Of a stretch of DNA of 36,310 bases, positions 16,842-25,496 are shown one piece after another. Position 1 is the first letter of the stretch. Every line of letters begins with the position of its first letter. Both the position numbers and the translations under genes were made by a program. The DNA comes from a virus. The DNA lies in IMG/VR virus record IMGVR_UViG_3300042273_000209. One strand, 5' to 3'. Below the pieces are notes generated by a model. The model was not told the DNA's origin, searched no databases, and was given only the letters and a program-made list of their open reading frames with translations.

Positions 16842-17215
16842 TCGGGATACCGTGGAAGGCAAAAGGGCGGGACCGAAGCGGCATCGACTGCGTAGGCCTC
16901 GCCCTTCTCGCGCAAAAGGAGCTGTACGGGCGGGAGTATGAATTCCCGTTCGACTACGACCCGGAGACGGGCGACGAGCGCGTTTTGCTCGACTGGCTGG
17001 ATGGCATCGCCGATGAAGCGGCCGTACCGCAGAATGGAGACCTCGTGATTTATCGCCTTGCCGGGACAGAGAAGCACCACATCGGCACGGTCGTTGACGA
17101 GGCGCTGCTCCACATCTATCCGGGCAAAAGTTCAAGAAAGGTTCGATTGCCGATGAAACGCATTTGCAAAATCTACCGGGCGAGGGAGGTGGGATCATGC
17201 CGGGAGCCGCGATAG
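16838..17215 (+). CDS. NlpC/P60 (C40 peptidase)-like tail protein (lambda K-like)
   Basis: GIDCVGL Cys motif and HHIGTVV His motif. Confidence 0.6.
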   Translation: MIGIPWKAKGRDRSGIDCVGLALLAQKELYGREYEFPFDYDPETGDERVLLDWLDGIADEAAVPQNGDLVIYRLAGTEKHHIGTVVDEALLHIYPGKSSRKVRLPMKRICKIYRAREVGSCREPR

Positions 17216-20200
17216 GGGCACTGCTTGGAGCGGCTTTTTCGTCAACGATAATCGGGTGGGGGCTGGCGGCAACATGGCTCGGAGCGATGATGATAGGAGC
17301 TTCCATCGGGAGTCTGTTTGACGCACAGGAAATTGACCTCGGAAATTCCACACCGAACTACGCCTTCGGACAGCTTTCCAATACGAAGAGTCAGCTTCTC
17401 CCGGTCCCGATCGTGTACGGGCGTTGTCGCATGGGCGGGAACGTGTTCATGCAAACGTTTTATGACGACTCCATGCAGAAGATGGACATGTTTGTCGGCG
17501 TCTCGGAGGGTCCGATTCAGTCGATAAAATCCGTGTACGCGAATGATGTTGTGCTCATTGATGAGAACGGCGACGAGGTTCACGAGCTTGTCGAAAGCTC
17601 GCTTAATCTCCATCTTGGAGCGCCGGACCAGGTAGCCGACAGCCGCGACCCCGGCGGGAACGCCTATCCGAACACGGCATATGTCGCCCTTACCCTCAAG
17701 GCGCAAGACAGACTAACGGGCAACCCGGTCATATCCTCCATCGTGGAGGGACGAAAAGTTTGGACGCCTGCGGGGACAGTATTTTCTCGTAATCCTGCGT
17801 GGATCGTGTACGACTTCCTGACGAATACCCGCTACGGCGTTGGCATTCCAACAGACCTGATAGACCTCGACAGCTTCACGGCGGCGGCTACGTATTGCGA
17901 CGCGCCGATTGACGGTGGGCCGCGATTCACGCTGGACTACATCATCGACACTCAGCGCCCTGCCGTGGACCATTTGCAGGCTATGTTGGGCTGCTTCCGA
18001 GGGTACTTTCTCGCCCGTGACAAGATCGAATTGCACGTCGAGCAGGCCGGGAGTGTGTACAAGGCCCTGACTCCGGACAACTTTGTCAAGAACTCTTTCA
18101 TGTGGTGGCAGAAGAGCGGTGACGACAGCCCGAACAGGATCGTCATCGAGTGGGTCGACCCGAACAACCACTACGAGCAGAGTTCCGCGCCGTTCGAGAT
18201 CCAAGAGGACATTGCCGCTCGCGGGGTGTACGAGAAATCCATCTCCCTGCTCGGAGTCACGCGCCCGGAGCAGGTGGGGCGGCTTGGAAATTACCTGCTT
18301 GAAACGGCGAAGCGGGTACAGAACTTCTGCGCGTTCCAAGTTTCGCTGAAGGATGCGGATATCGAGGCCGGGGAGATCGTCAGCATCACCTACCCCGACT
18401 TCACCGGGTGGAGCGCAAAGCCCTTTAGAGTGCTGGCCGTGCAGGACGAAGGACAGACTGGGAACGTCACCATCACCTGCGCGGAATACGATGCGGCGGT
18501 GTACTCCGACGATGGGCTGAACGTCGATAGCCCGATCCAGGACAGTCCGCCGGTCACGTATGACGACGTGTACGCGCTGGTGTTGGAGGACGTAGGGCAT
18601 CAAGAGGGCGATGGTACATGGGTTCCGATCATCAGAGCGACATGGCAAAATCCATCCGACTACACGCCGACGGCGATTAATGTACGGTGGCGATATGTTG
18701 CGGACGAAGGAGAGCCGGAAGAGGAATGGACGCTTCACGTCAACAGTACGCGCCTGATAACGCAGACCAACATTCCAAGCCTTAAAACCGGGCGCGAAGT
18801 CGAAGTCTGGGTGAATTGCGTTCGACCGGACACCGGGACGGAAACGACCGGAAAAACGGCGTCGATCATCGTAGGGAAAGACGTGGAAGCCCCCGACGCA
18901 CCGACTGGACTAACGGCTACGGGATGGTTCGGTTCGATCATCCTTGAATGGATAAATCCGACCGCGCCCGACTTGTCTCATATCGAAATCTGGGAAAACG
19001 CGGTCGACGACCGGGACACCGCAGTAAAAATTGCCGAGACAAAAGGGACGTCATACCAGCGGTATGTGGGTTCGTTCATCACCCGCTACTATTGGGTGAG
19101 GGCGGTGGATTTATCAGGCAATATCGGGCCATGGAACGCCCTGGCGGGCACGGCGGGCAACTCCGACCAGGAGAACCATCAGGTTTTCGTGGATCTGTTG
19201 CTTGAGGAAAACCCGTATCTGAACAAGGCCATCGACGATCTGAACACGCGGATCGATCCGATAGAAGTAGATATCGGAGATATTACCGGCAGGCTGGAGA
19301 CCGTCGAAGTTGATCTTCCCGGAGCGGTACAGCGGCTCGCGGAGAGAATGAAGGAAATCGACGCGGACGTTATGGATCAACTTCGCTCCGTCTCCGCGTC
19401 TGCGGTCGATGCGTTGCTGAACATCGCTGAGATCGGGCAGCGAATCACGGACGCCGGGATTGTGGTGGACCCGGACAGCGGCGAGGTCAGAATCTGGGCC
19501 GTCGATCAGCTACGAACGGAGCACGGAGTTAGGCTGTCGAATGCGGAACAGCTTATCAGCGCCCAAGCCGGCATAATCTCGCAAAAGGTCGGGATTGCGG
19601 ACGTAGACGCAAGGATTGCCGAAGCGGTATTCGGAGACGTCGGCGAGTTGTTGGTATCAGGGCTTGAGGCACACATCACGAGCGTCGAGCAGGAGCTTAA
19701 CGCCGCGAAAGCGGAATTGACGCAGAAGGCTAACAGCATAGAAGTAGATGAGATAGGCGGACGTGTAGGTACTGCGGAAACGGAAATCTCAGGGCTTAAG
19801 GCGTCCGTTGCGTTGAAGGCGAATCAGGAAGAGGTGGACGAACTCACTTCCAGAGTGACAACCGCTGAATCTACGGTTGACGCCCTAAACGGAACCATCG
19901 GCTCGGAAATAGTCGCCATCGGTCAGGAAGGGCGTGACCTGGCGAATCTCACCGCCGAGGGTTTGGTAGAAGCCATCCTCAACGATGCGGACAACCACGA
20001 TAGGTCCAAGGTAAGCCTCGCTATGGCAAAAGAGGAGTTGTACGCCAATATAGAGGATGGGCTAGAAGCCGAGGCAGGCCAGAGGGCGGAACTTGCCGCT
20101 GTGGTTGACGACAACAAGGCACTGATACTCGAAGAGAAGGCGGTTAGAGCCACGCAGGACGAAGCAATAGCGTCCTCTGTGGAGTTATTGACCGCCAGGG

Positions 20201-21360
20201 TAGGAGATGCAGAAACATCCGTCCAGACCGAAGCCGAAGCGAGGTCTACGGAAACAGCGTCCCAGGGTGCTTATACCTTTAACATGATCTCCAAGCTTAC
20301 GGGGGAAACAGCGGAGGCCGTCGTCGAGGACATTCTGAATCAAGCTGAGGGTAGAGACGTCGCCAAGGAACAATATGCCATTATCCGTGAAGAGTACGAT
20401 ACTAAGATAGAAGAAGGCATATCGTCCGAGGCTAGCAAACGAGAGCTGTTGGCCGTGAAGTTAGATGAAACAGAAGCCGCTATACAGGAAGAGGCATATA
20501 CCCGCGCCACGCAGTACGAAGCAACTTCCGCCCGGATTGCGACCGTGACGGCAACGGTCGAGAATAATCTGGCCGCGATCCAAAACGAGGTTACGGCACG
20601 GGCGGATGCAGACTCAGCTCTAGCCTCTAATGTATCAACATTGTCAACCACGGTCGGAAGTAATACCTCTGCAATACAGACAATTGACAGTTCAGTTGAC
20701 GGAATTAAATCAAAACACGCCGTAAAGATAGACACAAACGGGTACGTTACAGGCTATGAACTTATTGGCACTGGCGCATCAAGCTCCATGGTATTCCATG
20801 TTGATAATTTTCTAGTCGGCAAGCCAGGGACAACAAACAAGTATCCATTTGTCATTGGTACGGTTGACGGTGTATCACGGGTTTCCATGAACAATGCATT
20901 CATCCAAGATGCGGCGATCAGCTCAGCGAAGATTAAGGACGCCAACGTTGGGACGTTAAAAATCGAGGGGAACGCTGTTTCTGTCCTGGCGGTGGCATCT
21001 GGAGACTCAAAGATAGACCTAGGGGTCATGGGTAGTGATACGTATCACCAGGTGCTCTCTCTCACTGTATCAACCCTGGCGGGCTATCCAATGATGATTA
21101 ACTTTACAGCTTCTACCGAGGTAGTCGAGTCTACAATGGCTCTCCGTCTGACACGTAACGGATCTGTTTTATCTGGGCAGGATGAGATTTGGATCACCCA
21201 ATTTGGATACTCTGGGGCGAGGTTTGCGACTGCCTACACGTTCGTAGACAAATATCCCCCCGGAGGGAACAATACCTATGCTATCTACCTCAAAAAGGTT
21301 GGAGGATTGGCGGTTAGAGTCTTTAATCGAGCACTTACAGCATTGCACGTCAAGAGGTGA
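17197..21360 (+). CDS. Host specificity / central tail fibre protein (lambda J-like)
   Basis: About 1387 aa; NPAWIVYDFLTNTRYGVGI motif; GAGGGAGG RBS before ATG 17197. Confidence 0.8.
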   Translation: MPGAAIGALLGAAFSSTIIGWGLAATWLGAMMIGASIGSLFDAQEIDLGNSTPNYAFGQLSNTKSQLLPVPIVYGRCRMGGNVFMQTFYDDSMQKMDMFVGVSEGPIQSIKSVYANDVVLIDENGDEVHELVESSLNLHLGAPDQVADSRDPGGNAYPNTAYVALTLKAQDRLTGNPVISSIVEGRKVWTPAGTVFSRNPAWIVYDFLTNTRYGVGIPTDLIDLDSFTAAATYCDAPIDGGPRFTLDYIIDTQRPAVDHLQAMLGCFRGYFLARDKIELHVEQAGSVYKALTPDNFVKNSFMWWQKSGDDSPNRIVIEWVDPNNHYEQSSAPFEIQEDIAARGVYEKSISLLGVTRPEQVGRLGNYLLETAKRVQNFCAFQVSLKDADIEAGEIVSITYPDFTGWSAKPFRVLAVQDEGQTGNVTITCAEYDAAVYSDDGLNVDSPIQDSPPVTYDDVYALVLEDVGHQEGDGTWVPIIRATWQNPSDYTPTAINVRWRYVADEGEPEEEWTLHVNSTRLITQTNIPSLKTGREVEVWVNCVRPDTGTETTGKTASIIVGKDVEAPDAPTGLTATGWFGSIILEWINPTAPDLSHIEIWENAVDDRDTAVKIAETKGTSYQRYVGSFITRYYWVRAVDLSGNIGPWNALAGTAGNSDQENHQVFVDLLLEENPYLNKAIDDLNTRIDPIEVDIGDITGRLETVEVDLPGAVQRLAERMKEIDADVMDQLRSVSASAVDALLNIAEIGQRITDAGIVVDPDSGEVRIWAVDQLRTEHGVRLSNAEQLISAQAGIISQKVGIADVDARIAEAVFGDVGELLVSGLEAHITSVEQELNAAKAELTQKANSIEVDEIGGRVGTAETEISGLKASVALKANQEEVDELTSRVTTAESTVDALNGTIGSEIVAIGQEGRDLANLTAEGLVEAILNDADNHDRSKVSLAMAKEELYANIEDGLEAEAGQRAELAAVVDDNKALILEEKAVRATQDEAIASSVELLTARVGDAETSVQTEAEARSTETASQGAYTFNMISKLTGETAEAVVEDILNQAEGRDVAKEQYAIIREEYDTKIEEGISSEASKRELLAVKLDETEAAIQEEAYTRATQYEATSARIATVTATVENNLAAIQNEVTARADADSALASNVSTLSTTVGSNTSAIQTIDSSVDGIKSKHAVKIDTNGYVTGYELIGTGASSSMVFHVDNFLVGKPGTTNKYPFVIGTVDGVSRVSMNNAFIQDAAISSAKIKDANVGTLKIEGNAVSVLAVASGDSKIDLGVMGSDTYHQVLSLTVSTLAGYPMMINFTASTEVVESTMALRLTRNGSVLSGQDEIWITQFGYSGARFATAYTFVDKYPPGGNNTYAIYLKKVGGLAVRVFNRALTALHVKR

Positions 21361-21688: not shown

Positions 21689-21882
21689 AAATAAAATACA
21701 AGCCAACCTCTGCGGAGGTGCGGAAAAAGCGGAAAGCGGAATATTTATCAAAGTATCCGATTGAGATCCAACTTGAGGCAATTACGGAAGCGGCGATGGG
21801 GCGCACGACAAAATTAGATGAATTGGTCAAGGGGCTCTCTGACATCAGGGAGTCCCTGCCATTCTCAGAGGAGGTTGAATAA
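21685..21882 (+). CDS. Hypothetical small protein
   Basis: ATGA coupling; GAGGTGGAG RBS. Confidence 0.45.
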   Translation: MKIKYKPTSAEVRKKRKAEYLSKYPIEIQLEAITEAAMGRTTKLDELVKGLSDIRESLPFSEEVE

Positions 21883-23195
21883 TGAGCTGGTATAGAACAG
21901 GAACCGTAGCCGTAACGAACGGTTCCAAGACCGTCACTGGGGTCGGAACGCTCTGGACAACCGCTGTCAATGCGGGGGATGCATTCGCCCTTGTGGACGC
22001 AAATCTGAACCCTACGGGCGCATGGTACGAGGTGGAGTCCGTCACGAACAATACGACTCTGGTGCTGAAACAGTCCTATACGGGGAGCACCGGGAGTAAT
22101 AAGCAATACTGCGTGTTCAATCTTGTGGGCAACATGACCACACCGAGCTTCGCCCAGCGGTTGGCGCAGTTTTTCGACAGTTTCCAAGGGTTGCTCGACC
22201 AGCCGACCACCACGCCCACGGCATCCAGCATCCCGATCGCCGACGGCAGCGGCAAATTGGCCGCTGGATGGCTCCCGGCAGCCACGACATCGGCCTCCGG
22301 CGTGGTCGAGCTGGCGACCGCAGCCGAGGCGCAGGCTGGGACCGACTCCGTGCGGGCGGTGACTTCTTCGGGGCTGCGTGCGGCGCTGCTGGCAGCCGCC
22401 CTTAACTATGGGTTTCACCCATCGCTAACTAATGCAGCACCGGCTGATCTCAATACGTTGCTGACCCCTGGTATATATACCGGGCCTGGCGTATCAGGCA
22501 CATCCAGCTGGCCGGGCGTCAACACCAAGTATGGCTACGTAATCGTGCTTCAGCGGTCGAGCATGCAAGTAATGCAGATGGTGCTGTACCCGTCGTCGAC
22601 GGGGGTAGAATTTTACATCCGTGCATACACTGACGGCACCTGGACAGCATGGAATGTCTTTGCGCCACCGACTCTCGCCGCCACCTCCACCGACGATGCC
22701 ACATCGGCAACTGCGGCTCCGCTGAAGAGTGCGGGGGGGCTGGCGGTGGCTAAGGATGCTTGGGTGGGGGGCGATACCCGACTTACTGCGGGAGGAATCC
22801 ATGGTGGAGGTGTCCTTAATAAGACATTTTGGCATGACTTGCCAGATGCGGGGACGTACAAAATAAAAATTGCCTCTCAAGCGTATATAATTGGGGCATT
22901 GGATATCTCTGTATTTGGAACATACGGAACAACTAACAGAGAAGGGTATGCCAGCTACAAGGTCCTATTTAATAGGACTGTTGACTCCATAACTATAATC
23001 CCCGTGCAGGCACCAAAGGATACTGGGGGATCTTTTACAACAGGATATTCTTTTAATGTAGCTAAACCAGATACCGACACATTAGAAATAGCAATTACAA
23101 AAGGATCTGGTGCCATTTATTACGTGGGTATTCAGGGAGTTTTTACACACCCCCACTTCGCAAAAACTGTAACAACCGAGTTTATCCCAGCATAA
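21882..23195 (+). CDS. Tail fibre protein with low-GC C-terminal domain
   Basis: ATTSASGVVELATAAEAQAGTDSVRAVTSSGLRAAL fibre motif; composition shift near 22800. Confidence 0.7.
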   Translation: MSWYRTGTVAVTNGSKTVTGVGTLWTTAVNAGDAFALVDANLNPTGAWYEVESVTNNTTLVLKQSYTGSTGSNKQYCVFNLVGNMTTPSFAQRLAQFFDSFQGLLDQPTTTPTASSIPIADGSGKLAAGWLPAATTSASGVVELATAAEAQAGTDSVRAVTSSGLRAALLAAALNYGFHPSLTNAAPADLNTLLTPGIYTGPGVSGTSSWPGVNTKYGYVIVLQRSSMQVMQMVLYPSSTGVEFYIRAYTDGTWTAWNVFAPPTLAATSTDDATSATAAPLKSAGGLAVAKDAWVGGDTRLTAGGIHGGGVLNKTFWHDLPDAGTYKIKIASQAYIIGALDISVFGTYGTTNREGYASYKVLFNRTVDSITIIPVQAPKDTGGSFTTGYSFNVAKPDTDTLEIAITKGSGAIYYVGIQGVFTHPHFAKTVTTEFIPA

Positions 23196-23210
23196 AAGGA
23201 GAATGCATAC

Positions 23211-23420
23211 ATGTTAAATAAACTTGACTCGCTCCACCAGGACGTATCCCAGGCAATCATCCAGCTCCGAGAGTTGGAGCGGTACAAGGATGACTTTACA
23301 GTCGCTAAAAAGGCCGAACTACAGGCCACGATCAACCGCCTCCTCGGCGACGCACAGCGGAAGATGGACACCGTAGAGGACCACAGGGCAGATGGTACAT
23401 GGGAATCCTCTGGGGAATAG
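23211..23420 (+). CDS. Hypothetical protein (coiled-coil-like)
   Basis: AAGGAGA RBS. Confidence 0.4.
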   Translation: MLNKLDSLHQDVSQAIIQLRELERYKDDFTVAKKAELQATINRLLGDAQRKMDTVEDHRADGTWESSGE

Positions 23421-23713
23421 TCCCTCTCCTCGTCCATGAAGGCGCCCATTACCTGGCGGCCTTCCTGGTGGGGAGCCGCCTTCGTTTTCGCTTTTCGTGG
23501 GGGCGGTTGGGACCGGTCAAGGTACCCAGGTGGACATGGACGTGGCCGGACACGACGCCCCAAAAAATACGTTTCATCTGTCAGGCCGGGTTCCTTCTGG
23601 AGCTCGGCCTGATCCCGTTTGCTCCCTGGCAGTATCAGGCGGTGGCCATTATCCATTTTGCCGCTTATCCCTGGTATGCCGGGGATCACAGCGATTTCAG
23701 GGGGATGATCTGA
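23399..23713 (+). CDS. Small membrane protein with HExxH motif (HEGAH) in first hydrophobic helix
   Basis: ILWGIVPLLVHEGAHYLAAFLVG; immediately upstream of endolysin. Confidence 0.4.
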   Translation: MGILWGIVPLLVHEGAHYLAAFLVGSRLRFRFSWGRLGPVKVPRWTWTWPDTTPQKIRFICQAGFLLELGLIPFAPWQYQAVAIIHFAAYPWYAGDHSDFRGMI

Positions 23714-24261
23714 TGGCGCGATTTGACGATTGTCTACAGGTGGTGCTGGGCTTCGAGGGCGGGTACAGCCACCACGAGGCCGACCGGGGAGGCCGCACGA
23801 ACTGGGGCATCACGGAGGCGACGCTAAAAGAGGCCCGCAAGCGCGGCATCGTGGGTCACTCCGACATTGCGCGACTCAAAACCCACGAGGCCGCAGCCAT
23901 CTATGAGGCGCTCTACTGGGTGCCGTCTCGGGCCGACGACATGCCGCAGCCGCTCGACCTCGTCGTCTTCGACTGCGCCGTTAACCACGGCGTCGGGGGG
24001 GCCGGTCGCCTCCTGCAGGAGGCGGTCAACGCCGTGATGGACGCCGATCTTGTGGTGGATGGAATCGTCGGACCGGCGACACAGCGAGAGTTAATGAAAG
24101 CCCTGGCTGCCAATCGCCCCGAGGCGCTGGCCCTGGCTATGCTGGCCATGAGGGCCCGCTATTTCGTCCGTATCGTCGAGGGCAACCCCAGTCAGCGGGC
24201 GTTTTTCTGGGGCTGGGTGCGTCAGAGAGTGGCCAACCTTATCGACAAGCTCAGGAGGTGA
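23713..24261 (+). CDS. Endolysin, glycoside hydrolase family 108-like with peptidoglycan-binding C-terminus
   Basis: VLGFEGGYSHHEADRGGRTNWGIT motif. Confidence 0.8.
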   Translation: MARFDDCLQVVLGFEGGYSHHEADRGGRTNWGITEATLKEARKRGIVGHSDIARLKTHEAAAIYEALYWVPSRADDMPQPLDLVVFDCAVNHGVGGAGRLLQEAVNAVMDADLVVDGIVGPATQRELMKALAANRPEALALAMLAMRARYFVRIVEGNPSQRAFFWGWVRQRVANLIDKLRR

Positions 24262-24267
24262 GGCCCT

Positions 24268-24585
24268 GTGAGCGAGGATAGAGTGTATGGACTCCAGCAG
24301 GACATTGAGGAGATAAAGGACAGTTTAAAGGAACTGGCCAAGGCATACACGGAACTGGCCCTCCACAACCAGCGTCTCGTGACGTTGGAACAAGGGCTCC
24401 AGGGTATCACCAAGGACGTCCGGCGCATACAGGAGACATGCCTCGTGCGGGGCGCAAAGTTAGACCGACTGGGCGAGGCCCCCCAGGACTGGTGGGAGCG
24501 GAACTTCTCGTCCGCCGGGGTTAAATTACTCTGGCTCGTCGTCGGCGGCATCGTGGGGACGATCATCGCGAGGTATGCGAGATGA
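24268..24585 (+). CDS. Lysis-cassette protein, coiled coil plus C-terminal TM helix
   Basis: GTG start after GGAGGTGAGG; C-terminal VKLLWLVVGGIVGTIIA. Confidence 0.45.
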   Translation: MSEDRVYGLQQDIEEIKDSLKELAKAYTELALHNQRLVTLEQGLQGITKDVRRIQETCLVRGAKLDRLGEAPQDWWERNFSSAGVKLLWLVVGGIVGTIIARYAR

Positions 24586-24809
24586 AGAATATCGCACAAT
24601 GGCCGTTGCGAAAACCGTTAGCGCTGTTCGCCGCCGCACTCGTGGGCGGCGTCGTCGTCTGGAGCCTGGTCTGTCAACGCGATATCCCGCCCAACGTCAA
24701 GGATCTGACTCAGTGGTTCGCGGGTATCGTCCTGGCGGCCTATTTCGCGTCGAGCACGACGGAGGCGGTGAAGGGGGTCGAGAAGCGATGTCCGAGCGAC
24801 GGTGGCTAG
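24582..24809 (+). CDS. Holin-like protein (two TM segments)
   Basis: ATGA coupling; two hydrophobic helices in 75 aa. Confidence 0.5.
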   Translation: MKNIAQWPLRKPLALFAAALVGGVVVWSLVCQRDIPPNVKDLTQWFAGIVLAAYFASSTTEAVKGVEKRCPSDGG

Positions 24810-25060
24810 GCTGGCTGGCGGCTCTGGCGACAGCTCTGGCCTGGCTCGCTCGGGAGCTGCTTGTGGGCAAGACGCAGGAGCCCAAGCCCGTCGAGAGGAC
24901 AAAGGAGAAGGAGCGAGAGATTGTGGACGAAAGGGGGCGACACGATGAGGAGATCAGGAACGCAGAGGACGAGGCTCGTCGCCTGGTCGATGCTGCTGGC
25001 CTCGACGATCTTGTGGCTCGTGCCAATGAGCGTCTGCGCCGAAGTGAGGGTGACAGCTGA
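24788..25060 (+). CDS. i-spanin-like protein (N-terminal TM, charged coiled coil)
   Basis: MSERRWLGWLAALATALAWLA then KE/R-rich helix. Confidence 0.4.
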   Translation: MSERRWLGWLAALATALAWLARELLVGKTQEPKPVERTKEKEREIVDERGRHDEEIRNAEDEARRLVDAAGLDDLVARANERLRRSEGDS

Positions 25061-25322
25061 CGGCGAGGTCGTGATGACGGCTGAGGATTTCCGGGCGATC
25101 ATGGCTGACCTGGAGGCAGCAGAGGCGACGCGAGACGCCCTTGATGCCGCTCTCGCCACGGAGAGGGCGCGGGTGGACGACTACATGCTGGAGGTAGAGT
25201 CGCTGAGGTCCATCCTTGAGATCGAGAGGGACTCGTTCCGATCGGCGAGGCTTTCGGCAACAAAAGACAAATTCATCTGGGGATTCGTGGGGGCCCTCCT
25301 CGGGGCCGCCGCGAATAACTAG
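24945..25322 (+). CDS. o-spanin or u-spanin-like protein overlapping previous gene in another frame
   Basis: N-terminal signal-like segment ending LVPMSVC, coiled coil, C-terminal hydrophobic tail. Confidence 0.35.
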   Translation: MRRSGTQRTRLVAWSMLLASTILWLVPMSVCAEVRVTADGEVVMTAEDFRAIMADLEAAEATRDALDAALATERARVDDYMLEVESLRSILEIERDSFRSARLSATKDKFIWGFVGALLGAAANN

Positions 25323-25339: not shown

Positions 25340-25459
25340 ATGAATAGTTTCGTAGCGCTGATTCTGGCCATGGCCTGTTTTGCCGGATTCATCCTGGCGC
25401 TTGACGCGCGCAAACGGAAGGCCCTCCAGAAGCAGATTGATGAGCTAAAGAAAAGATGA
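25340..25459 (+). CDS. Small TM peptide (39 aa)
   Basis: Strong GGAGAGGAGGTGGAG RBS; one TM helix; followed by terminator. Confidence 0.3.
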   Translation: MNSFVALILAMACFAGFILALDARKRKALQKQIDELKKR

Positions 25460-25463
25460 TGGC

Positions 25464-25496
25464 AAGAGTCCCCCTTTAGGGGGCTCTTTTTTTTTG
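25464..25496 (+). terminator. Rho-independent terminator ending the plus-strand late/lysis unit
   Basis: GC hairpin followed by 9 T. Confidence 0.7.

Follow-up and report, generated by a model that had tools for sequence, protein, structure and literature searches.

Our analysis of a 36,310-nt stretch of viral DNA (IMG/VR virus record IMGVR_UViG_3300042273_000209, hereafter the window) revealed that its lysis cassette is headed by a small gene whose product belongs to a protein family that, judged by profile comparisons, is homologous to site-2 proteases (S2Ps). This gene (23399..23713, + strand) starts with ATG and encodes 104 aa; we refer to it as the mini gene and to its product as the mini protein. 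The mini gene is real, being conserved and under purifying selection, and its synteny with lysis genes is conserved as well. Since it usually heads lysis gene clusters and looks S2P-related, our data suggest a proteolytic step, so far undescribed, in the timing of host lysis by some phages. We give roughly even chances to the specific reading that the mini protein is a minimal three-helix metalloprotease of the S2P clan, expressed together with the lysis genes, and that it cleaves a lysis or host protein spanning the membrane. What is new is the three-helix architecture of ~100 aa and its setting in a phage lysis cassette; the fold class was already known.

The mini gene and its lysis cassette

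An earlier note, made from the sequence of the window, described a membrane protein of only 104 aa beside the endolysin, and we found the open reading frame (ORF) as described. Among 5.8 billion proteins, a word-indexed search returned 38 close homologs that share 52-81% identity with the mini protein and are all 76-122 aa long; the record of one of them names an uncultured Dethiosulfovibrio (Synergistota) as its source. Using a profile built from these 38 homologs, HMMER detected 161 clusters at E<=1e-3 (90 at E<=1e-10) among 1.84 billion cluster representatives, and nearly all of the 161 clusters fall between 54 and 150 aa. Pairwise comparisons of the mini gene with eight homologous loci gave dN/dS values of 0.15-0.28, which denote purifying selection. 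Its GC and GC3 are intermediate between the values of its neighbors and are not anomalous. ORFs in other frames also lie across the mini gene (23436-23612, 23497 onward, and 23132-23689 on the - strand); they are by-products of high GC.

The mini gene stands at the end of a siphovirus-like structural module, and the lysis cassette begins with it. Upstream of it are the genes for a tail-tip protein of 1398 aa (17164-21360) and a tail fiber of 437 aa (21882-23195; phrog_2712), and its start overlaps an upstream ORF by 22 nt. At the other end, its TGA (23711-23713) shares the A with the endolysin ATG at 23713, giving a 1-nt overlap, and the GGGGGA ribosome-binding site of the endolysin sits within the 3' end of the mini gene. 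Overlaps of the mini gene with both neighbors recur in L001, L003, L004, and L005. The endolysin itself (23713..24261, +) combines GH108 (PF05838, E = 2.8e-27) with PG_binding_3 (PF09374, E = 2.7e-14) and also matches the PHROG endolysin family phrog_315 (E = 2.5e-41), so the neighbor named in the earlier note was correctly recognized.

Further lysis genes follow the endolysin. The next one (24268..24585, +) encodes an XhlA-like protein of 105 aa with a coiled coil and a C-terminal transmembrane (TM) segment followed by positive charges (phrog_1193, E = 3e-5). It is a candidate lysis accessory or substrate, and homologs of it occur in 5 other loci carrying the mini gene. A 75-aa holin-like protein with two TM segments (24582..24809, +) matches the holin family phrog_2359 weakly (E = 3e-3) and has homologs in L027, L038, and L039. 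The following two genes, which overlap each other, were assigned from sequence features only: an i-spanin-like protein with an N-terminal TM segment and a charged coiled coil (24788..25060, +), and a spanin-like protein in which a signal sequence and a coiled coil are combined with a hydrophobic segment at the C-terminus (24945..25322, +). By BLAST, the spanin-like protein belongs to a cluster found in 7 loci, and a neighbor family related to the i-spanin-like protein (e.g., L009 4795-5238) is present in 4 loci, with the ORF of the window itself unmatched. After a 39-aa TM peptide (25340-25459), a strong intrinsic-terminator-like hairpin with a T-run (25464..25488, +; 10-bp stem with 6 GC pairs) closes the late/lysis operon. 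The endolysin, XhlA-like, holin-like, and spanin-like genes directly downstream thus confirm that the mini gene is placed in a lysis cassette, as had been proposed. No promoter-like or strong terminator-like sites were found flanking the mini gene, and given this, its in-between GC, and its overlaps with both neighbors, we regard it as a late-operon gene. The idea of an autonomous "moron" was not supported, as the flanks of the gene match neither promoters nor terminators and its GC is unremarkable.

Conserved motifs and predicted fold

To describe the family more broadly, we used an alignment of 109 diverse sequences with a mean column identity of 22%. Four features stand out along the mini protein. 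Helix 1 carries HEGAH (residues 13-17; 23435..23449, +), a motif of the HExGH type that alignments and an hhalign comparison with RseP predict to be zinc binding and catalytic. It is followed by a beta-hairpin (residues 30-47; 23486..23539, +) that includes P43-R44-x-x-W47 and for which AF2 places strands at 30-37 and 40-47; we propose that this hairpin corresponds to the beta-loop that re-enters the membrane in S2Ps. Helix 2 contains GFLLE (residues 64-68; 23588..23602, +), the counterpart of the S2P GPxxN motif. Finally, the end of helix 3 holds a family-specific third motif, HFAAYPWYAGDHSD (residues 86-99; 23654..23695, +), which can be written as H86-x-x-x-Y-P-x-Y-A-G-x-x-x-D99-F.

Conservation of HExxH among homologs, on which the earlier note had made its interpretation depend, is nearly complete. 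The residues H13, E14, H17, F30, W47, Y79, and H86, as well as Y90, P91, Y93, A94, G95, and D99, are invariant in the 38 close homologs. Ten positions are retained in at least 90% of the 109 diverse members, namely H13 (107/109), E14 (104/109), H17 (108/109), R44 (100/109), G64 and F65 (109/109 each), E68 (106/109), H86 (104/109), Y90 (108/109), and D99 (107/109), with W47 (96/109), Y93 (97/109), and P91 (66/109) being somewhat more variable. The presence of HExGH and D99 in 95-99% of the family, despite the low mean column identity, is a pattern like that of an active site. D99 is the leading candidate for the third zinc ligand, with H86 as the alternative. In six of the 109 relatives (P0087, P0093, P0102, P0106, P0146, and P0149), the catalytic Glu or a His is missing, and these few members may act non-catalytically.

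AF2 modeling of the mini protein with the 109-sequence alignment gave a pLDDT of 96.4 and a pTM of 0.87, and with only the 38 sequences the pLDDT was 81.9 and the topology unchanged. The model consists of a helix at residues 4-23, the hairpin at 30-47, helices at 54-70 and 77-97, and a short helix at 99-103. HEGAH accordingly lies within the first hydrophobic helix, where it had been placed previously, and a check of TM topology agreed with a membrane protein of three helices: there are three moderately hydrophobic stretches (Kyte-Doolittle maximum of 1.65 over 15 residues), and AF2 gives three main helices. The hairpin loop contains six K+R residues, which argues that it is cytoplasmic, and K+R are absent from both the N-terminus and the loop at 71-76. 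This distribution fits a predicted N-out, C-in topology, the same as that of RseP TM1-TM3, in which the active site would be oriented toward the cytoplasm. The last seven residues, SDFRGMI, include one K/R and one D/E, so the mini protein is without a charged C-terminal tail. The predicted core was judged structurally similar to solved S2Ps; Foldseek searches against the PDB and against the BFVD viral models returned no significant match.

Relationship to site-2 proteases

In a comparison of the family profile with PDB sequences, the matches were to Aquifex RseP (9.2e-6), MjS2P (2.9e-4), E. coli RseP (3.7e-4), and SpoIVFB (0.028). Further analysis using hhalign, with the E. coli RseP sequence taken from NC_000913.3, aligned the family with RseP at a probability of 92-93% (E = 2.6e-7). 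This alignment pairs HEGAH with the HEFGH of RseP (H22-E23-F-G-H26), RFRFSWG with RFSIGFG, such that both hairpin strands are aligned, and QKIRFICQAGFLLEL with QRAAIIAAGPVANF. GFLLE (GFxxE) aligns with GPVAN of the RseP segment AAGPVANF, the polar residue being Glu rather than Asn. An hhalign comparison of the family with RseP TM3-TM4 gave no alignment, and helix 3 has no sequence likeness to NxxPxxxLDG that could be aligned.

The Pfam models for S2Ps were reached by many relatives, always below the cutoffs. Among the 109 relatives, 60 touched Peptidase_M50 (best E = 1.7e-7), 28 touched DUF3267, and 18 touched M50B. The best relative scored 26.3 against a cutoff of 27.2, and the mini protein itself has no match to PF02163 (Pfam M50). 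It reached 13.6 bits for PF13398 (M50B; cutoff of 26) and 13.5 bits for PF11667 (DUF3267; cutoff of 27.1), and each of the 28/109 relatives that match PF11667 at E<=0.01 also remains below the cutoff. Three close homologs carry a precomputed PF11667 match. Matches to TIGR00054 were at ~20 bits against a threshold of 147. The likeness to S2P-type proteases claimed in the earlier note therefore holds at the level of the RseP alignment and the profile matches, and it does not extend to membership in Pfam M50 or DUF3267 by their thresholds. Taken as a whole, the earlier interpretation of the mini gene is partly supported. In a side search, a homolog search with an MjS2P fragment, intended for an S2P profile, yielded three fragments only.

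The family thus shares several features with the S2Ps of MEROPS clan MM (RseP, SpoIVFB, and MjS2P): the first core helix carries HExGH and is followed straight away by a beta-hairpin, the second helix has G-x-x-x-polar (GFxxE in the mini protein, GPxxN in S2Ps), and helix 3 has, toward its cytoplasmic end, a conserved Asp that may be equivalent to the S2P Asp. The spacing from H13 to D99 is 86 residues in the mini protein, close to the ~90-94 in S2Ps; it is 94 in both MjS2P (H54-D148) and SpoIVFB (H43-D137). There are also differences. S2Ps have at least ~200 aa and at least four TM helices, whereas the mini protein has 104 aa and three helices and is without the PDZ domains, CBS domains, or gating helices usual in S2Ps. 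Its third motif is HxxxYPxYAGxxxDF instead of NxxPxxxLDG. Moreover, S2Ps are cellular signaling proteases, whereas the mini gene is phage-encoded and located in lysis cassettes.

The DUF3267 proteases, which include TmcP, are another close comparison. TmcP is the leader peptidase of the TMcin RiPP and cleaves a TM, pore-forming peptide precursor; catalytic-site mutants identified it genetically as a leader peptidase of the S2P clan, and it requires a two-helix escort (PMC13252029). Like TmcP, the mini protein is small, of the S2P clan by its profile matches, and without the two gate helices, and it has HExxH together with D99 and P91 as candidate counterparts of the distal Asp and Pro of TmcP. 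In TmcP, the H68-to-D158 spacing is 90 residues (PMC13252029). The single TM helix of a pore-forming peptide that serves as the TmcP substrate is also conceptually near a holin-type substrate. In contrast to the four helices found in 88% of the DUF3267 family (PMC13252029), the mini protein has three in its model, which makes it smaller still than the four-helix members. The two also differ in genomic setting, as the mini gene is part of a phage late operon and its neighborhood is without a RiPP precursor, a transporter, or a TmcE-like escort.

We also searched for any existing description of the family. Neither the mini protein nor any of its 109 relatives matched PHROGs, and NCBIfam returned only far-sub-threshold RseP and YydH/LiaK matches for the family. 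There was no match for the mini protein in PADLOC or among the holin families of Pfam and PHROGs. When the mini protein and three divergent relatives served as tblastn queries against 50,697 phage records, the only match was a weak one, to LR756508, an unannotated uncultured phage. Since the family has no Pfam, PHROGs, or NCBIfam name and is absent from the searched phage records, it is annotated everywhere as hypothetical. A full-text literature search found no description of an S2P/M50-type gene in a phage lysis cassette or prophage.

Genomic context in other viral loci

With the aim of placing the mini gene in a broader context, we examined its neighborhoods elsewhere. In general assemblies we found 8 contexts, each of them a late region of a phage or prophage, and scans of IMG/VR added ~35 more distinct viral loci. 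Context counts rest on the 37 loci with enough downstream sequence, in which the neighboring gene was checked by Pfam. In 18 of these 37 evaluable loci, the gene immediately downstream (+1) encodes a muralytic enzyme, and this enzyme comes from five unrelated families: GH108 (the window, L009, L016, L030, L033, and L037), Peptidase_M15 (L002, L004, L005, L010, L034, L049, and L051), Amidase_3 (L001 and L039), SLT (L027 and L043), and Glucosaminidase (L038). Including the loci in which GH108, Peptidase_M15, or SLT is at +2 or +3 (L014, L015, L017, L026, and L031), a muralytic enzyme lies within three genes downstream in 23/37 evaluable loci, although these loci are not phylogenetically independent. 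The pairing of the mini gene with a muralytic gene occurs behind both Phage-tail_3-type (siphovirus-type) and P2-type (GpU/X/D) tail modules. Since the mini gene is retained as one endolysin family replaces another, it would appear to act at the membrane step and not at the cell wall.

The genes upstream of the mini gene are almost always of the tail-fiber type (collagen, CBM_5_12, Gly_rich_2, DUF6273, DUF4376, and DGR components). In roughly a third of the loci, the neighbors are tail-sheath, fiber-like, or terminase genes instead of an endolysin. More specifically, the mini gene is directly upstream of the tail sheath gene in L011 and L012, between fiber-like genes in L017, L031, and L032, and upstream of the large terminase gene in L028, L029, L036, and L041, which are four jumbo-size contigs of 168-357 kb.

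All-against-all BLAST and jackhmmer comparisons of the neighboring genes revealed no universal partner or substrate gene. Counted by loci, a LydA-type holin cluster accompanies the mini gene in 9, the spanin-like protein in 7, the XhlA-like protein in 6, and the 75-aa holin-like protein in 4. Recognized holins (GTA_holin_3TM and Phage_holin_3_3) have genes of their own in cassettes that contain the mini gene, located downstream of the endolysin gene, and the mini protein is therefore not the sole holin candidate.

Proposed role in lysis and alternative readings

The mechanism we propose is as follows. The mini gene would share its transcript with the late genes, and its translation would be coupled to that of the endolysin. 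Its product would span the membrane with three helices, N-terminus outside and C-terminus inside, with a cytoplasmic re-entrant beta-hairpin, and its predicted active site would consist of H13-E14-x-x-H17 in helix 1 together with D99 or H86 from the end of helix 3. The TM helices that S2Ps cleave have a type II orientation, and the cut falls close to the cytoplasmic face. In the same manner, the mini protein may cleave some other small membrane protein of the late phase within its TM segment, such that cleavage would set the timing or occurrence of the membrane lesion. The substrate might be of the holin or antiholin type, it might be a spanin or the tail-anchored XhlA-like protein, or it might come from the host membrane; within the cassette, candidate helices would be supplied by the holin-like, XhlA-like, and spanin-like proteins. 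We infer zinc binding, proteolysis, the substrate, and the effect on lysis timing together with its direction (trigger or brake).

A proteolytic step in lysis is made plausible by two systems, the action of TmcP on a pore-forming TM peptide and that of the host S2P MucP on the lysis protein of phage PP7, which MucP destabilizes via its TM helix (bioRxiv 10.1101/2024.12.09.627492). The parallel with our proposal is that a protease of the S2P type alters lysis by acting on a phage lysis protein at its TM helix. MucP, however, is a host-encoded, full-size resistance factor, whereas the mini gene is the phage's own. A broader statement, that some phages (here those of Synergistota and of unidentified hosts known from metagenomic viral contigs only) control lysis with a minimal intramembrane protease of their own that cleaves a holin, an antiholin, or another lysis effector in its TM helix, is one that we put forward tentatively, as a possibility that we think will probably not hold in full.

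To our knowledge, canonical phage lysis comprises holin, antiholin, endolysin, and spanin, and includes no phage-encoded protease step. If functional, an S2P-like gene heading lysis cassettes would represent a new regulatory layer, and if our proposal is true, a proteolytic trigger or brake would be added to the holin clock. The mini protein would then also be the smallest self-sufficient S2P-type enzyme; we know of no smaller scaffold in the clan than a three-helix S2P core of 104 residues. Such a protein would be an attractive model of helix binding and cleavage by an intramembrane metalloprotease that has neither PDZ filters nor gate helices.

The evidence from gene position can be read in other ways. 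The mini protein resembles holins and antiholins in being a small membrane protein encoded beside the endolysin, co-transcribed late, and combined with interchangeable endolysin types; the slot directly upstream of the endolysin is the usual place of a holin, and three predicted membrane helices would suit one. It could therefore be a non-catalytic holin, antiholin, or holin-docking partner on an S2P-like three-helix scaffold, with its conserved His, Glu, and Asp binding metal or a partner helix in a structural or sensing role. The persistence of the six relatives without the catalytic Glu or a His is in keeping with this, as is the finding that DUF3267-type S2Ps act with small two-TMH partners (PMC13252029). 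We nevertheless judge such a role improbable, as the mini protein differs from holins and antiholins in bearing a metalloprotease active-site signature, whose near-universal retention in the family is typical of an active site, and in having no charged C-terminal tail. The lack of a holin match in Pfam and PHROGs and the separately encoded holins of the same cassettes also speak against it.

Another reading retains the protease and moves its targets away from lysis, with proximity to the endolysin being positional and not functional. The mini gene would then belong to a variable region past the tail-fiber genes, and its product might exclude superinfecting phages by cleaving those of their proteins that insert into the membrane, or it might rewire host envelope stress or cell division by cutting an anti-sigma factor or an FtsL-like protein. 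Known S2P substrates are indeed host regulators, e.g., RseA, RsiW, RsiV, and FtsL, and in P2-like and lambdoid phages, accessory genes are known to concentrate at fiber-to-sheath and fiber-to-lysis junctions. The tail-fiber-type genes upstream, the placements between fiber-like genes and before the sheath, and the four jumbo-size contigs with the mini gene before the large terminase all agree with this view. The gene itself does not look like an insertion of that kind, given that it has no flanking promoter- or terminator-like site, has GC and GC3 between those of its neighbors, and overlaps both of them, which implies late co-expression. Moreover, its adjacency to the endolysin was kept through five exchanges of endolysin family, and PADLOC gave no match. 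On balance, we hold targets outside lysis to be rather unlikely.

Lastly, a size of ~100 aa is that of minimal soluble zincins, and the helices of the mini protein are only moderately hydrophobic by the Kyte-Doolittle measure given above. We considered on these grounds whether it might be a soluble, minigluzincin-like enzyme, or whether the ORF might have arisen by chance, and regard both as extremely improbable. The soluble mini-zincin reading was rejected, and so was a chance ORF, the latter in view of the dN/dS values and the conserved relatives.

Components of the lysis cassette around the mini gene

Directly 3' of the endolysin, the window encodes an XhlA-like protein of 105 aa (24268-24585; phrog_1193 'hemolysin', E = 3e-5), with a coiled coil at its N-terminus and a GG-containing transmembrane (TM) segment at its C-terminus. 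Its homologues adjoin the mini gene (the gene for the 104-aa HEGAH protein) in L003, L014, and L015, three of the other phage or prophage loci that carry relatives of the mini gene, and they lie ~1 kb downstream of it in L030 and L037. We regard the XhlA-like protein as a candidate substrate of the mini protein or a candidate lysis accessory.

Farther downstream, an i-spanin-like gene (24788-25060), whose product has a TM segment at its N-terminus and a charged coiled coil, overlaps a spanin-like gene (24945-25322) with relatives in seven loci, the product of which combines a signal sequence and a coiled coil with a hydrophobic C-terminal segment. An atypical lipobox (VPMSVC) was found in this pair. 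Since an i-spanin-like gene and a spanin-like gene occur together, the predicted gene content implies that the host of the window phage is diderm.

At the 3' end of the cassette lies a 39-aa ORF, MNSFVALILAMACFAGFILALDARKRKALQKQIDELKKR (25340-25459), which has a basic tail in addition to its single TM helix. It immediately precedes a terminator-like hairpin (25464-25488), the strongest one in the region, and may represent another small membrane peptide of the lysis cassette. At the 5' end, a 69-aa ORF without a TM segment (23211-23420) overlaps the mini-gene start by 22 nt, and no significant Pfam or PHROG family was found for it. The slot upstream of the mini gene is also occupied by small ORFs (54-84 aa) in L003, L017, L054, and L060.

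Variation at the mini-gene locus

The lysis cassette of L015 is collinear with that of L014 apart from an inserted 270-aa ORF (L015 4668-5480), which separates the XhlA-like gene from the GH108 endolysin gene, carries an SPPY motif, and looks like a putative DNA methyltransferase. The endolysins themselves also vary, and an N-terminal extension of ~150-180 aa (WVVEQVLWAE..GKTG.EKR...LPW..EW) is conserved among those of L026 (4673-5584), L033 (4322-5356), and L034 (4292-5128), followed by different catalytic domains, namely, Peptidase_M15 in L026 and L034 and GH108 in L033. With BLAST and loose single-linkage clustering, L058 and L060 group with these extended endolysins, any kinship with the extension domain being uncertain.

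Because components of diversity-generating retroelements (bAvd, reverse transcriptase, and Mtd-type tail-fibre domains) adjoin the mini gene in several loci (L017 1086-2830, L021 1-434, L031 4358-6385, and L038 2788-3948), the mini-gene region is a hot spot for tropism switching too.

A sub-group of four jumbo-size viral contigs of 168-357 kb (L028, L029, L036, and L041) departs from the lysis-cassette pattern. In these contigs, the mini gene is located between a conserved 408-aa protein, for which there was no Pfam match, and a large-terminase-like gene (a weak match, to Terminase_6N near the threshold), and no lysis enzyme was recognised near it.

Divergent members of the mini-protein family

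Among the 109 diverse family members in alignment A2, six (P0087, P0093, P0102, P0106, P0146, and P0149) have lost the predicted catalytic Glu or one of the predicted zinc-binding His residues, with altered motifs such as HILGH, HLFGH, HKMGH, HRTGH, YEGGH, and ISDWCAW. The remaining fold motifs are retained in all six, which may be pseudo-enzymes. In a batch scan, one member of the alignment matched the Pfam family Phage_holin_5_2 (the Hol44 holin family; E = 7.3e-5), a match that could be due either to biased composition or to a genuine connection with holins.
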